From a virus, in the IMG/VR virus record IMGVR_UViG_3300022856_000003: a DNA stretch of 64,000 bases; one strand, given 5' to 3'. Every line of letters begins with the position of its first letter. Position 1 is the first letter of the stretch. This document shows, in pieces, positions 5,284 to 61,682 of the stretch. Made by a program: the position numbers and the translations under genes. The notes beneath the pieces are model-generated. The model ran no database searches. It had not been told where the DNA came from and was given only the letters and a program-made list of their open reading frames with translations.

Positions 5284-5383
5284 TAGCCCCTGGGCGAAAT
5301 CGATTTCATTGGACTGGCACTGGTCCATGGCCAGATTCGGCAAGTAGCTGATACACTGGCCGCAGCACCCCTGGAGATTCAGA

Positions 5384-5680
5384 ATGAGCAACCCCACGAA
5401 GAACGTCCGAGGCACTCCCGAGAAGAACCGCAAGGCCAACCATGTGCCGAGTGCGTTCCCATTCGACGGTGGGCTGAACCTGGAAGAGCCCGGATCGGCC
5501 ACGGTCTATCTGGCCAAGTTCAACAAGGCGATGGCCGATGTTGAGGTCGGAATGATGGCTTCTGGTCTTCGTCCCGGCATGGCTGGCTACGATGATGTGA
5601 AGTCGGGCCAGACCGGCTACGGCGTGCCTTCCCCTGGTCTCGATGCAGCTCCCGCTGGCCTCTTCATCAAGAAGGTCTGA
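5384..5680 (+). CDS. hypothetical protein
   Basis: 98 aa ORF with GGAG RBS. Confidence 0.65.
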   Translation: MSNPTKNVRGTPEKNRKANHVPSAFPFDGGLNLEEPGSATVYLAKFNKAMADVEVGMMASGLRPGMAGYDDVKSGQTGYGVPSPGLDAAPAGLFIKKV

Positions 5681-5706
5681 GCGGACCCGCTCGTCGAGGT
5701 AAATAG

Positions 5707-6192
5707 ATGGCCGTCGCAGATCTCATCCCTAGCTACTTCACGCAGATCTTTGCGTCTGGCGACGGCGTGACGGGAATTTCGTACACGGGCGAAGAGACCG
5801 TCCTTCGGACGCACCCCACGATCCCGGCGAGGAATGGACGAATCCATGTCGCGGGGAAGTCAGGGTCCGAGGCCGGTGCCATCGACGGCGGGTTGCTTGA
5901 CCTGGCGACGCTTCGCCTTGGACTCTGGAACCGTCTTCAAGGCGTGTTCATCAAGCTCCCGAACATCAGCAACATCAGCTTGTTCGCCGTGGACGAGGAT
6001 GGGATCACCTACCTCATGGCCACGGTGGCGAGCGACACGATGGTGATGGATGGGTTCTCGTCGAAGTGGCTCCAGCCGGGGTGGAACGTCAAGGTCGTCG
6101 CTACGGGTACGCTCAATGCGGCAGGCAAGATTCATTTCATCTTCGACGAGTGGGCCAACCCGATCGCCGTCGCACAAATCACCACCGGATAG
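5707..6192 (+). CDS. hypothetical (virion?) protein
   Basis: 161 aa ORF with GAGG RBS, in the tail module. Confidence 0.65.
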   Translation: MAVADLIPSYFTQIFASGDGVTGISYTGEETVLRTHPTIPARNGRIHVAGKSGSEAGAIDGGLLDLATLRLGLWNRLQGVFIKLPNISNISLFAVDEDGITYLMATVASDTMVMDGFSSKWLQPGWNVKVVATGTLNAAGKIHFIFDEWANPIAVAQITTG

Positions 6193-6203
6193 GGGAGCCT
6201 GAT

Positions 6204-6704
6204 ATGGCGCGTACCGAGTCATCTGATCCTCTGCACGGCTTCCGCTTCCACGTTCGTACTGAGACGGAGGCGGGGCAGTTCTCCGACTCTGAGTTGGGCG
6301 AGGCTGGCTTCCAGTCCTGCACGCTTCCCGAGCTATCGACGGAGTCGGTGGAGTACCGCGAGGGCCACCTCACGTACACGAAGAAGTTCCCTGGAGTCCC
6401 CACGGTCTCGAACCTCACGCTGATGCGTGGAGTGACGAAGACGGACACCAGCTTCTACGACTGGGTCCTCACGGCCATCGAGGGTGGTGAGTACCGCACG
6501 AACCTGACCGTCTACCACTGGCATCGCGATGGGAAGACCAGCGGCCAGATCGCGGACCTCAACGCGGCGCGGAAGTACAACTGCTACGAGTGCTTCCCGA
6601 GTCGTTGCAAGCCCGCTGCGGACCTCGACGCCACCTCGAGTGAGGTGTCGCTGGCCGAGGTCGATGTCGAGGTCGAGTACTTCGAGATCGAAGACGCAAC
6701 CTGA
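6204..6704 (+). CDS. tail tube protein (T4 gp19/Afp1-like)
   Basis: DPLHGFRFHV, GFQSCTLPE, EYREG, K.PG...NLTLMRG, FYDW, LDATSSEV motifs; ATG 6204 after GGGGAG. Confidence 0.92.
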   Translation: MARTESSDPLHGFRFHVRTETEAGQFSDSELGEAGFQSCTLPELSTESVEYREGHLTYTKKFPGVPTVSNLTLMRGVTKTDTSFYDWVLTAIEGGEYRTNLTVYHWHRDGKTSGQIADLNAARKYNCYECFPSRCKPAADLDATSSEVSLAEVDVEVEYFEIEDAT

Positions 6705-6721
6705 GATCCTGGGAGTAGTTG

Positions 6722-7279
6722 ATGCACTCTCTCGTCCACCGGGTGAAGACCCTGACGGAGCACAAGTTCCACTTCCTCGGAGGTGGAGCTGTCAGGATCA
6801 CTCGCGCCAGGCTGTCTGCTCACCTGAGCGAGTCTGGACTCGAGTCCGCTGCATTCTTGGACGAAGGCAGCTTGCTTCCTCGATCATTGGCCGAAGACCT
6901 GGCCGAGGATGGTCGAGTGTCAGGCATCGTCCGCTCTGAGCCCTCTGACGACCCTGCGATGGCACTGGTGAAGCGAGCCTTCGCCTATGCCCGTAAGGAG
7001 GCTCGTGGGTGGTCTCAGGCTGAGTTAATCGCCGAGTTCGCAACGGACTACCCGGATGATTACGAGATACGTCTCCGCAAGGCCGTCTCACACATCGCCC
7101 AGTCCTACATCAACGAGGCTGTGGTCAAGACAGCCTATGAGGCGTGTCCCGCGAAGCCTTCGATGGAATGGGCTCTCCCTACCAAAAGCGTGTTCGTCGA
7201 CATCTTGGCTGACATCGTCGAAGAGCGGATGAGCAAGGGGATCTCCAAGTACAAGAGGGGTCTCGACGACGCCGTCTGA
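6722..7279 (+). CDS. hypothetical protein
   Basis: ORF with GGGAG RBS. Confidence 0.6.
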   Translation: MHSLVHRVKTLTEHKFHFLGGGAVRITRARLSAHLSESGLESAAFLDEGSLLPRSLAEDLAEDGRVSGIVRSEPSDDPAMALVKRAFAYARKEARGWSQAELIAEFATDYPDDYEIRLRKAVSHIAQSYINEAVVKTAYEACPAKPSMEWALPTKSVFVDILADIVEERMSKGISKYKRGLDDAV

Positions 7280-59477: not shown

Positions 59478-59628
59478 TCGACCGGCTCCATCGCCTCCTG
59501 GGGCTCGCCGTGGTTACGCCCTATGTGGTCGCCTGCGTTCTGTTCGCAGGGGTCGGTGTATGGTTGCTGTCACGACCTGACTCGCACGCAATCACCGTGG
59601 CCTGGTTCAAGTGGTGGGGGTTCTGGAC

Positions 59629-59949
59629 ATGAACAAAATCGAGCATCTCTTGTCTTGTCTCGCGGAGGAATCCGCAGAGGTCGTCCAGGCGGCGATGAAG
59701 ATCCATCGCTTCGGACAGCACGATGGATACCCAGGTACCGACCGCACCAATATCGGTGATCTGGCACATGAACTCGACGACCTCGCCGGGGTAGTGTCCA
59801 TGCTCCGCGCCGAAGGAATTCTGCCGCCCGAGGACCACAACCGGGTGCAGGCAAAGGTGCTCAAGGTCGAGAGGTTCATGGAACACGCACGGAAGACTGG
59901 GGCTTTGGAATGCCACACAACGGACGTAACAGAACCGGAGACTGACTGA
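59629..59949 (+). CDS. MazG-like nucleotide pyrophosphohydrolase
   Basis: LAEESAEVVQAAMK..RFG and ELDDL (EExxE/ExxD pattern). Confidence 0.75.
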   Translation: MNKIEHLLSCLAEESAEVVQAAMKIHRFGQHDGYPGTDRTNIGDLAHELDDLAGVVSMLRAEGILPPEDHNRVQAKVLKVERFMEHARKTGALECHTTDVTEPETD

Positions 59950-60073
59950 TGGTGGAGCCCTACCTTACCGGTGACCCAGAGCCGATAGAGCGCGACTACA
60001 GGCTGATCGATACCGCACTACGTCTGTACGTGTGGGTGATCTGGCTGACAATTCTGTGGCTCGTGTTTTCGTG

Positions 60074-60643
60074 ATGAGGATCGGAATCATCGGGGCAAAA
60101 GGTCACGGCAAGGACTCAATCGCTGACATCCTGATCGACGAGAACGGCTTCCGAAAGGTCGCGTTCGCTGATCCCATGAAGGAGATGCTTCACGTTGGCC
60201 TTGGCATCTCTCGCAAGATTCTCTACGGGCCTGCCGACGTGAAGGAACGGGTTCTCCCGGAGTTCGGTGTGTCGCCGCGACACATGTTGGTGACCCTGGG
60301 GACCGAGTGGGGCCGAAGGCTCATTCATGAAGACCTATGGACCAACATCGCGATGCTCAGGACCCTCCCGCTCTATGAGCTTGAGCATGGTGTTCAGTCT
60401 TGGGTAGCTTCCGACGTGCGCTTTATCAACGAGGCAAAGGCTCTCGTAGAGGCTGGATTCGTCATGTTCAAGGTGGAGCGACCTGGATACGTCACGAAGA
60501 CGGGCGAGCACGCAGGGCATCAGTCGGAGACGGAGCTGAACGACATCGAGTACGACGTGTTGATCAGGAACGATTCCACACTGGAAGATCTGCACGAGAA
60601 GGCTAGGCGAATACTCAAGGCCATGCGACACGCCAACCCTTGA
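60074..60643 (+). CDS. deoxynucleoside monophosphate kinase
   Basis: GAKGHGKD P-loop, FADPMKE, LGTEWGR, DVRFINE, HQSE. Confidence 0.9.
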   Translation: MRIGIIGAKGHGKDSIADILIDENGFRKVAFADPMKEMLHVGLGISRKILYGPADVKERVLPEFGVSPRHMLVTLGTEWGRRLIHEDLWTNIAMLRTLPLYELEHGVQSWVASDVRFINEAKALVEAGFVMFKVERPGYVTKTGEHAGHQSETELNDIEYDVLIRNDSTLEDLHEKARRILKAMRHANP

Positions 60644-60668
60644 CTCGCTTTGATTGTTCAGCTACAGT
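60640..60668 (+). promoter_or_regulatory. sigma70-like promoter with a TGTTCA spacer motif
   Basis: TTGACT-17 nt-TACAGT. Confidence 0.65.
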
Positions 60669-61118
60669 AATTGCGTGACCTCGATCTCCCGCAAGGTGCG
60701 GGACTGGAGATATCGAATGCGCGACTTCTACGCTCGAATCATCAAGAATGCCGCCCGAACCAGCGAGACTCTCAAGTCGGCCCGAGCCTGCCCACAGGTC
60801 GAAGAGGCCGTGTGCTTCCTGAGCGAGTCCGAAGCTGCCGCGATGTTCGAGGAAGCTCGATGAGCGAGCGCAAAGAAGTTCGCATCCTCGGATCTAACAA
60901 GGTCACCCGTTTCAACATGCTGTTCGACGACGGGACAGACCGCCTCGAGTTTGGTACCCGCGCTGGCGGATACATCATCCGAGAGGACTCGATCGAGCGT
61001 GGTGAGACCATCGTTGATGGTTGGCTGACACTCGCGCAGATGGACCTCATCCGCGACAACTTCAAGGCCCTGGCAATGGGCACGATGACTGAGGCAGAAG
61101 CACTCGGCACGGTCGACG

Positions 61119-61682
61119 ATGCTTCCTGAACCACTCAGAACGCTCCAGGATCAGAAGAGGTTCCACGAGGAGATCAAGCGCGCATATCGATGGCTCGATA
61201 TTGATGTGGACCCGAAGGCGGCATGCCTCTACTGGGCGATGGCCACGCTGATCGCGGCTGAACGAAATCGATTGCGCGAAGACTTCGGCTGGGACTTCCA
61301 GCTCCAAGGCGGCACAGCTTCATTCGTTCGCCTTGCTGACGAAGACGACGACGGGCATGAGGACACGCACAACGCCTTCTCCTACGTCTTCGAGGATAGC
61401 CAGGTCACTCGAACCGCTATCCGAGAAGGTCGGCTCCCAGAGATGCACGTCTGGGTCGCCTGTGCGGTCAACGGCGTCATCGTCGATGTGACCACTGGCT
61501 TTCAGCCCGCCCAGTGCCTTGCTCGCGGGAAGATGCCATGGACGGCTCCAAAGCCTCCACCGTTCGTCATGTTCGGTGTGGACGATCCGCCGTCCGGTCT
61601 CTTCTACGCACCCAGTAGACCCGGAACAATCCTGGCGCATGCCTTCGCAGAAGACGCGATGCGCGAGAGGAAGAATCGATGA
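61119..61682 (+). CDS. hypothetical protein (possible transglutaminase-like C/H/D triad)
   Basis: CLYWA...HVWV...IVDVT spacing. Confidence 0.4.
   Translation: MLPEPLRTLQDQKRFHEEIKRAYRWLDIDVDPKAACLYWAMATLIAAERNRLREDFGWDFQLQGGTASFVRLADEDDDGHEDTHNAFSYVFEDSQVTRTAIREGRLPEMHVWVACAVNGVIVDVTTGFQPAQCLARGKMPWTAPKPPPFVMFGVDDPPSGLFYAPSRPGTILAHAFAEDAMRERKNR

Follow-up and report, generated by a model that had tools for sequence, protein, structure and literature searches.

Introduction

On the IncP plasmid RK2, KorB (a protein of the ParB family) acts through a dozen or more 13-bp palindromic OB operators, which are distributed around the plasmid, some next to the -35, some tens to hundreds of bp off and some remote from any promoter, and provide global transcriptional control at a distance. 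The operators of LacI/GalR-type regulators, such as the cre sites of CcpA and the PurR box, are 14-16-bp palindromes with a central CpG (xG-N-AA-N-CG-N-TT-N-Cx) and occur both around promoters and in genes. Among phages, the Cluster O mycobacteriophages carry a 17-bp dyad repeat, present in the lytic phage Corndog as 34 copies of TGTTCGG-N3-CCGAACA, for which a dimeric DNA-binding protein was predicted and whose function is not known (Cresawn et al., 2015, PMC4351075). The stoperators of Cluster A mycobacteriophages (L5, Bxb1) are asymmetric 13-bp sites, oriented with transcription, which are bound by the monomeric immunity repressor and silence the prophage (PMC4351075). In T4-type phages, PeSL (promoter-early stem-loop) cassettes are reported, in which an early promoter and a stable stem-loop flank swapped genes (Arbiol et al., 2010, PMC2839356). 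Here, we analyze an array of 18 short palindromes in 64,000 nucleotides of viral DNA from IMG/VR record IMGVR_UViG_3300022856_000003. This whole stretch, referred to below as the window, represents 64 kb of the 144 kb of an uncultured T4-like myovirus with 59% GC. No description of such arrays in T4-like phages was found in the literature searched, including the Far-T4 paper.

The palindrome array is a real, strongly selected and clade-wide feature. Based on sequence comparison, we propose, with a probability of about 0.58, that its members would be docking or operator sites for a dimeric DNA-binding protein encoded by the phage.

Occurrence and sequence of the palindrome

An exact search of the window identified 12 perfect copies of GAAATCGATTTC and six copies of the variant GAAATCGATTGC (five on the + strand and one inverted, at 22417), exactly where an earlier note, made from the sequence alone, had placed 18 copies:

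5296 to 5307, perfect site, intergenic, 13 nt past the tail sheath stop codon
7282 to 7293, perfect site, 2 nt past a stop codon, upstream of a 2H-phosphoesterase gene
10763 to 10774, perfect site, at the 3' end of the NrdJ gene, reads EIDF; 16 nt upstream of AGGCCA-17-TATAGT, ahead of a methyltransferase gene
11547 to 11558, perfect site, over the TGA stop codon of the methyltransferase gene; 5 nt upstream of the -35 of TTGACT-16-TACAAT
17462 to 17473, perfect site, over a TGA stop codon, 11 nt ahead of the next ATG
22417 to 22428, variant site (GCAATCGATTTC), 2 nt past a baseplate-wedge stop codon, just ahead of a Shine-Dalgarno (SD) sequence
27051 to 27062, variant site, 28 nt into the gene of a CxxCxxCC-domain protein, reads RNRL; about 58 nt past a -10-like hexamer
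29089 to 29100, variant site, within a coding sequence, reads RNRL
32621 to 32632, perfect site, begins 11 nt past the -10 of TTGAAC-17-TACACT (about +5 to +16)
36842 to 36853, variant site, within a coding sequence, reads RNRL; without it the gap would be 8.7 kb
41273 to 41284, perfect site, intergenic, 16 nt upstream of the -35 of TTGAAT-17-TAGAAT
42345 to 42356, perfect site, in a leader, 59 nt past the -10 of TTGACA-16-TAGAGT
44730 to 44741, perfect site, mid-gene in a 1012-aa open reading frame (ORF), reads EIDF; without it the gap would be 6.9 kb
49294 to 49305, perfect site, at the 3' end of a coding sequence, reads KSIS, 37 nt ahead of the next ATG
50715 to 50726, variant site, operator-like (+5 to +16), 11 nt downstream of the -10 of TTGACA-17-TAGAAT, the best promoter match of the window (11/12)
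55757 to 55768, perfect site, at the 3' end of a small ORF, reads KSIS, 5 nt ahead of the ATG of a zinc-ribbon protein
57783 to 57794, perfect site, over a TGA stop codon; 16 nt upstream of the weak TTGCTA-17-TACTCT
61264 to 61275, variant site, within a coding sequence, reads RNRL

The note had also held that such a 12-mer should occur far less than once in 64 kb by chance. Dinucleotide shuffles indeed gave only 0.02 expected copies of GAAATCGATTTC and 0.01 of GAAATCGATTGC, and Markov chains of order 1-5 trained on the window gave at most 0.18 copies of the perfect 12-mer, so that even high-order models fail to explain the 12 observed. Among all 10-16-mers of the window, the motif was the most over-represented, and its pieces were the most frequent.

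In the alignment of the 18 copies, information spans positions -2 to +14 and nothing further is conserved within 70 nt on either side. Thus, the full site is a palindrome of about 16 bp, (G/A)C-GAAATCGATT(T/G)C-G(C/T). The central TCGA is invariant, whereas one arm position varies; the flanking C(-1) and G(+1) are conserved and do not covary. Twelve sites have no half-site variant, six have one and none has two (12.5, 5 and 0.5 predicted by independence).

Placement and spacing

More than half of the copies (10 of 18) are intergenic or lie over a stop codon, three of them using a TGA as the T and GA of the site; those at 7282, 11547, 17462, 22417 and 57783 adjoin or overlap stop codons, as had been pointed out. 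The eight copies in coding sequences occupy three frames and, in agreement with the earlier note, read EIDF (two), RNRL (four) or KSIS (two). With at least 84% of the DNA coding, eight is far too few (P = 1e-4). A similar deficit was found in a distant relative, the 92-kb record G001 (31% sheath identity), which contains 23 perfect copies of GACCGTACGGTC: at 91% coding density, 11 of them are intergenic and 12 lie in coding sequences (P = 1e-6). Four of the six variants in the window are in-frame coding copies, cGA-AAT-CGA-TTG-CGC (R-N-R-L-R), in which TTG (Leu) stands where the perfect site would give TTT (Phe). The variant is therefore best regarded as a compromise between site and protein and not as a second element.

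The gaps between sites, given previously as 0.8-5.9 kb, measured 784-5915 nt. Their coefficient of variation (CV) was 0.46, compared with 0.92 for random placement (p = 0.001), and this result also held when the random sites were drawn from gene junctions only. Without the coding copies at 27051, 36842 and 44730, the array would be interrupted by gaps of 6.7-8.7 kb. In G001, the gaps were again more regular than random (CV 0.55, p = 0.002). Because it is seen both in the window and in a relative of 31% sheath identity, regular spacing is a property of the system and not of one genome, which lends support to the earlier suggestion of a genome-organising role.

Conservation in related phages

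Each of the homologues of the tail sheath protein that were found in metagenomes and IMG/VR was accompanied by an over-represented palindrome of its own:

L006 (63% sheath identity), GAAACTGATTTC
L004 (60% sheath identity), G(A/C)AACTGATTGC
L087 (52% sheath identity) and L033, GCAATCGATTGC
L122, GCAACCGATTGC
L041 and L145, TGCAA-N4/6-TTGCA
L031, L045, L047 and L048, CGAAC-N4-GTTCG
L132, L149, L015 and L056, GGACC-N4-GGTCC
L038 and L052, CGCAC-N4-GTGCG

These versions have 5-6-bp arms of the form xG(A/C/G)(A/C)(A/C) and mostly a 4-bp centre (6 bp in L145), often with a central CG. Where the centre is asymmetric, both orientations occur (3 to 2 in L149 and 1 to 2 in L031).

The gene order of the window was compared with 41.8 kb joined from an L004-type phage (L004comp). 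In the shared structural module, five of eight window sites lie at the same junction in this phage:

window 7282 and L004comp 14285
window 11547 and L004comp 17211
window 17462 and L004comp 22001 (also L006 18953)
window 22417 and L004comp 27290
window 27051 and L004comp 31867, both 26-28 nt into the orthologous gene

Despite the kept positions, the site centre changes from TCGA in the window to CTGA in the L004-type phage. Between the window and G001, positions are mostly not conserved, and density and regularity are kept. Thus, the arrays are retained in related phages in respelled form. Such concerted respelling, with many sites kept at the same gene junctions, is what would be expected if a reader encoded by the phage co-evolves with them.

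Promoter registers

Promoters were scored as sigma70-like when at least 8 of 12 hexamer positions matched within 120 nt of a site, with random positions and jitter of up to 60 nt in either direction as controls. Such a match accompanied 12 of the 18 sites, compared with 6.0 for random positions (p = 0.004). Four offsets from site to -35 are each common to two sites, which jitter of up to 60 nt reproduced in 0.5% of trials (p = 0.005):

offset -40, sites 32621 and 50715, site begins 11 nt past the -10
offset +17, sites 11547 and 49294, site ends 5 nt ahead of the -35
offset +28, sites 10763 and 41273 (and 57783 at 7/12), site ends 16 nt ahead of the -35
offset -87, sites 27051 and 42345

The +17 and +28 offsets are one helical turn apart, and the sites at 32621 and 50715 had already been noted to follow -10 boxes. 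A consensus scan yielded eight strong sigma70-like matches on the + strand, four of which have a site within 90 nt. The matches concerned include:

11564 to 11591, + strand, sigma70-like promoter TTGACT-16-TACAAT
41301 to 41329, + strand, sigma70-like promoter TTGAAT-17-TAGAAT
42258 to 42285, + strand, sigma70-like promoter TTGACA-16-TAGAGT
50675 to 50703, + strand, sigma70-like promoter TTGACA-17-TAGAAT, followed by a 54-aa HTH-like ORF

Some of the sites thus resemble classical operators or activator sites at promoters of host RNA polymerase. The regions examined in the relatives are late-gene modules and contain few sigma70-like matches. In addition, 11547-11575 and 49294-49322 share an extended similarity of 24 nt, GAAATCGATTTCGC(G/A)TGT(T/C)GAC, which comprises the site and a -35-like hexamer at the same distance; a promoter at 49294 would start within the next gene.

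A methyltransferase gene between two sites

Two of the sites flank the following gene:

10853 to 11548, + strand, N6-adenine DNA methyltransferase of 231 aa, the length of a catalytic domain only, between sites 10763 and 11547

Among solved structures it is closest to that of M.TaqI (E = 7e-5, alignment covering motifs I-IV), an enzyme that methylates TCGA; a second, weak match is to M.BseCI (target ATCGAT). The protein apparently has no target-recognition domain. As the target of M.TaqI is the exact centre of the site, methylation of the centre is plausible. The earlier note had suggested that methylation by this enzyme could modulate binding: the TaqI-like relationship strengthens the methylation part of that idea, and an effect on binding is speculation. 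In the L004-type phage, the locus encodes an MT-A70 enzyme that is unrelated, and here too a site lies at the 3' end of the gene.

This locus belongs to a variable cassette between the second gp19-like tube gene and a T4_baseplate gene (window 8517-13250, L004 15415-17226, L006 13955-14481). It contains NrdJ, the methyltransferase, a 319-aa ORF and the HTH_3 protein in the window, the small subunit of a class I ribonucleotide reductase (RNR) and MT-A70 in L004, and only a 71-aa ORF in L006. Upstream of the RNR small subunit, two L004-type contigs begin with different genes (L296 1-3347, from a 121-kb ENA contig, with an 834-aa ORF; L295 1-3392, from a JGI contig), which may reflect a strain difference or an assembly join.

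Search for a reader protein

Pfam and PHROG scans of 79 ORFs in the window (64 of 144 kb) revealed one clear DNA-binding family, HTH_3 (12583-13182). The candidate binders were as follows:

12583 to 13182, + strand, XRE-family HTH_3 protein of 199-205 aa, homologue search empty
50755 to 50919, + strand, 54-aa HTH-like protein with four helices, encoded directly after the operator-bearing promoter, homologue search empty
50916 to 51227, + strand, 103-aa winged-helix-like protein (HTH_20, E 0.26), four distant homologues only

The AlphaFold2 (AF2) model of the 54-aa protein is a confident four-helix bundle with weak HTH-type matches, the best being to Mu transposase I-beta (TM 0.66, E 0.7). Neither this protein nor the HTH_3 protein had a homologue in a non-redundant set of 5.8 billion sequences. 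A search of 1.84 billion cluster representatives with the 103-aa protein returned four distant homologues, all on contigs shorter than 2 kb and without a palindrome upstream. No member of the ParB, KorB, LacI (PF00356), LexA or MerR families could be identified among the 79 ORFs (ParBc/KorB at E up to 0.01), and no integrase or repressor family was present among the Pfam hits of the window.

Three binders had been put forward previously, namely XRE (12583), RHH (40043) and a winged HTH protein (50916). All of them are real ORFs, the HTH_3 assignment was confirmed and the RHH-like protein (40043-40423) is a DNA-binding candidate by sequence or fold. On the other hand, they have no detectable orthologues in the relatives that keep the array, which makes them poor candidates for a clade-wide reader. 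A protein that reads sites throughout a clade should itself be conserved, so the reader is probably encoded outside the window or is a conserved protein of unknown function.

The HTH types of the relatives differ: the L004-type phage encodes an 86-aa sigma-region-4-like protein and the 92-kb record encodes a MerR_1 protein. The former (L297 19706-19966, sigma70 region 4 or HTH_23-like) is preceded by a GCAACCGATTGC site, which lies 13 nt ahead of the GTG start codon; the protein was rejected as the reader because it has no counterpart in the window or G001. Topoisomerase IB was also rejected, being present in the closest relatives and L038 only.

Proposed function and alternatives

The independence of the half-sites, the weakness of the predicted hairpin, the conserved and non-covarying flanks and the copies inside genes favour recognition of duplex DNA by a symmetric dimer. 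Together with the promoter registers and the respelling of sites in place, they give indirect support to the earlier claim of dimeric-protein binding sites with selection acting on the DNA. We infer that one sequence-specific protein would bind the duplex sites as a symmetric dimer, with a half-site of about (G/A)C-G-(A/C)-A-A-T-C, and that this reader is most likely encoded by the phage and evolves together with its sites. Roughly half of the array stands in fixed registers to sigma70-like promoters: two copies lie at about +5 to +16, which is a repressor position, and others precede the -35 by 5 or 16 nt or follow the -10 by about 58 nt. Given these registers, a probable role of the protein is to modulate transcription by the polymerase of the host. 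All other copies, including the coding ones, are held roughly 3 kb apart and never more than 6 kb, and such spacing suggests that the protein acts over a limited distance from a loading site or partitions the genome into domains.

It should be noted that several observations weigh against this proposal. No binder was found in the 64 kb of the window, and neither the 41.8 kb of L004-type sequence nor the 92-kb relative contains an orthologue of the HTH_3, 54-aa or 103-aa candidates. Promoter matches as a class are no commoner than in shuffles, so that the register argument leans on few sites; 10 of the 18 sites have no shared register and 6 of the 18 lack any promoter-like sequence in their vicinity. 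An RNA hairpin formed by this type of palindrome would be stable in GC-rich relatives, where it typically lies between a stop codon and the next SD sequence. Finally, the perfect L004-type sites are mildly strand-biased, 10 to 2 (p = 0.04), or 14 to 7 when degenerate copies are included.

The last two observations also speak for an RNA element, that is, a transcribed intercistronic hairpin that is read by an RNA-binding protein or a nuclease and serves in RNA processing, in the stabilisation of mRNA ends or as a translational operator near the SD sequence. In many relatives, the order is stop codon, palindrome, SD sequence and ATG, with the element 11-24 nt ahead of the start codon; GC-rich versions such as GGACCGTACGGTCC would fold stably, and the strand bias is mild. 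The invariant TCGA, which would be the loop in the window, also fits such an element, as an arm position varies. However, the predicted hairpins of the window copies are marginal (-0.2 to -6.0 kcal/mol, median near -2.3). As the half-sites vary independently, one third of the copies would have an A.G stem mismatch without compensatory change, and the flanks show no covariation. Moreover, about half of the copies are inside genes, some of them mid-gene in essential late genes of 2-3 kb, where cleavage or a translation block would be harmful. The sites 5 or 16 nt upstream of the -35, one helical turn apart, are sensible on DNA only, and some relatives, L031 among them, show free variation in the loop. 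On balance, an RNA element is unlikely. Neither does the site resemble an intrinsic terminator or a repetitive extragenic palindromic (REP) element, both of which form stable, GC-rich hairpins, followed by a U-tract in terminators and measuring 20-40 nt with GTAG/CGTC heads in REP elements: the hairpin is weak and has no T-run, and no terminator-like hit coincides with a site.

Sites for a host protein, such as a LacI/GalR-type regulator or a LexA-type repressor, by which the phage might sense the state of the host or titrate a regulator, form the main alternative to a phage-encoded reader. Wherever the generic LacI/GalR operator, TGNAANCGNTTNCA, specifies an inner base, the window site agrees with it. 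Likewise, the CGCAATCGATTGCG of the L087 type resembles the PurR box, the CGAAC-N4-GTTCG of other relatives equals the Gram-positive LexA box, and the placement of sites around promoters (+10, -47, -58, +58 and intragenic) is reminiscent of the logic of CcpA and cre. The failure to find a conserved phage binder points the same way. On the other hand, the spelling drifts gradually with phage relatedness (GAAATCGATTTC, GAAACTGATTTC, GCAACTGATTGC and GCAATCGATTGC at 63-52% sheath identity) while the sites stay put. The 120 hits of the exact 16-mer in species-representative bacterial genomes are chance-like (single-copy per hit, 104 of 120 in coding sequences), with no sign of a regulon, and a titration sponge would not predict regular spacing. 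A host reader is therefore also improbable.

Returning to a phage-encoded reader, a more specific version would have the protein load at palindromes no more than about 6 kb apart and act at a distance, sliding or forming domains in the manner of KorB or ParB, gated by methylation of the centre adenine and timing late expression after replication in phages that lack the T4 late-promoter box. This combination is decidedly unlikely in full. The earlier idea of stoperator-like roadblocks found no support, since the sites are palindromic, occur in either orientation in relatives and in some cases lie mid-gene in large essential late genes of a presumably lytic phage.

It is very unlikely that the palindrome is a late promoter, or part of one, replacing the T4 box TATAAATA read by gp55. 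There is no TATAAATA in the window, and many copies in relatives are just upstream of late genes. However, the site is a palindrome, which relatives carry in either orientation; the copies at 17462 and 22417, only 11-12 nt from an ATG, leave no room for a start site and an SD sequence; two copies lie just downstream of sigma70-like -10 boxes; and the copies are spread equally over early-type and late regions, half of them inside genes. A T4-type late promoter was also rejected as such, given the absence of its box and an intergenic k-mer enrichment that yielded pieces of the palindrome only.

The least likely explanation is that the sites are recombination or cleavage points, either joints of cassette swaps or places where a phage nuclease, nickase or topoisomerase acts to initiate recombination-dependent replication. 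With its arms and 4-bp centre, the site resembles the targets of enzymes whose cuts are staggered by 4 nt; sites lie in or next to the variable cassette; HNH and GIY-YIG-like (MUG113/T5orf172) proteins are encoded in the window and a type IB topoisomerase in the lineage; and even spacing would suit replication restart. Yet the topoisomerase is missing from most palindrome-bearing relatives, and three independent, shorter metagenome contigs match the window with 100% identity over a stretch that includes four sites. A role at cassette junctions was rejected because gene-content differences generally have no site at their borders: outside the methyltransferase cassette, this applies to the indels between the window and the L004-type phage, for example, a 109-aa insertion at L004comp 24393-24722.

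T4-type phages rank with the best understood of all viruses, yet no part of the T4 model relies on dozens of identical palindromes; a large environmental branch of the T4 family keeps such an array. That the arrays are respelled by lineage, regularly spaced and written into essential genes implies a conserved trans-acting reader and a genome-wide function outside the textbook T4 programme. With the reader identified, phage gene control or genome organisation would gain a new layer and the Cluster O repeats could be explained as well, and co-evolving pairs of site and reader would form a natural set of orthogonal DNA-binding modules.

Other features of the window

The tail sheath protein of the window was found on a contig of 144,042 bp. 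Nearly all genes are on the + strand. The structural genes encode the tail sheath, two gp19-type tube proteins, gp25, a gp6-type wedge protein, a gp5-type hub protein and T4_baseplate proteins, and NrdJ is a B12-dependent RNR. A near-identity search with two 10-12-kb stretches of the window found no match among 50,697 phage records; tblastn with the sheath protein gave only relatives of less than 34% identity, with no near cultured relative, and a search of IMG/VR with the single sheath protein gave no match.

The 1012-aa ORF at 44040-47078, which carries a palindrome mid-gene, has a weak and short match to gp23 (major capsid; E 7e-5, under the Pfam cut-off). Pfam matches to the QueC, nucleoside 2-deoxyribosyltransferase and deoxynucleoside monophosphate kinase families occur in ORFs between 32138 and 63344, a set that hints at 7-deazaguanine or another DNA base modification. 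Two gene-free gaps at 8517-8800 (284 nt) and 31179-31389 (211 nt) have neither a palindrome nor a clear promoter match and could harbour small RNAs or small ORFs. A topoisomerase IB (PF01028) of the eukaryote/poxvirus type lies in the structural region of this T4-like lineage and is missing from most other sheath relatives examined:

L002 10-639, topoisomerase IB, just upstream of window base 1
L003 3-632, topoisomerase IB, just upstream of window base 1
L004 5667-6785, topoisomerase IB
L006 4229-5416, topoisomerase IB
L038 18307-19398, topoisomerase IB

Comparison with known systems

PeSL cassettes share with the present array the repetition of short regulatory motifs between genes of T4-type phages; here, in contrast, the hairpin is weak, a promoter is missing from most copies, and indels are not at the sites. 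Cluster A stoperators are likewise short dispersed sites, mostly in short intergenic gaps, and are read by a phage regulator that also controls the early promoter, whereas the sites in the window are symmetric and orientation-free, lie partly in essential late genes and belong to a T4-like phage.

With regard to the LacI/GalR operators, the window site cGAAATCGATTTCg fits the specified inner positions of the consensus TGNAANCGNTTNCA, and its outer bases are C/G and not T/A. Unlike in those systems, no LacI-type HTH was found in the window, and the centres of some relatives lack a CpG. The closest mechanistic model is KorB and its OB operators, in which identical palindromes also stand at several promoter distances (here -87, -40, +17 and +28, plus far copies). 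KorB differs in belonging to a plasmid and in being a ParB/KorB protein, whereas the present array is in a phage with about three times the sites, no ParB/KorB protein among the ORFs of the window and no expected partition.

The closest described case is that of the Cluster O repeats. Both arrays consist of tens of copies of an invariant inverted repeat with a tolerated centre, partly in genes (about one third in Cluster O, with many of the other copies intergenic), and they are also alike in that orientation has no meaning, most copies lie away from promoters and no role in indels is apparent. The Cluster O repeats are found in Mycobacterium siphoviruses and have 7-bp arms with N3, whereas the present ones are found in a T4-like myovirus and have 5-6-bp arms with N4. 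In addition, the array described here shows regular spacing, promoter registers for a subset of its sites, and clade-wide respelling with kept positions.

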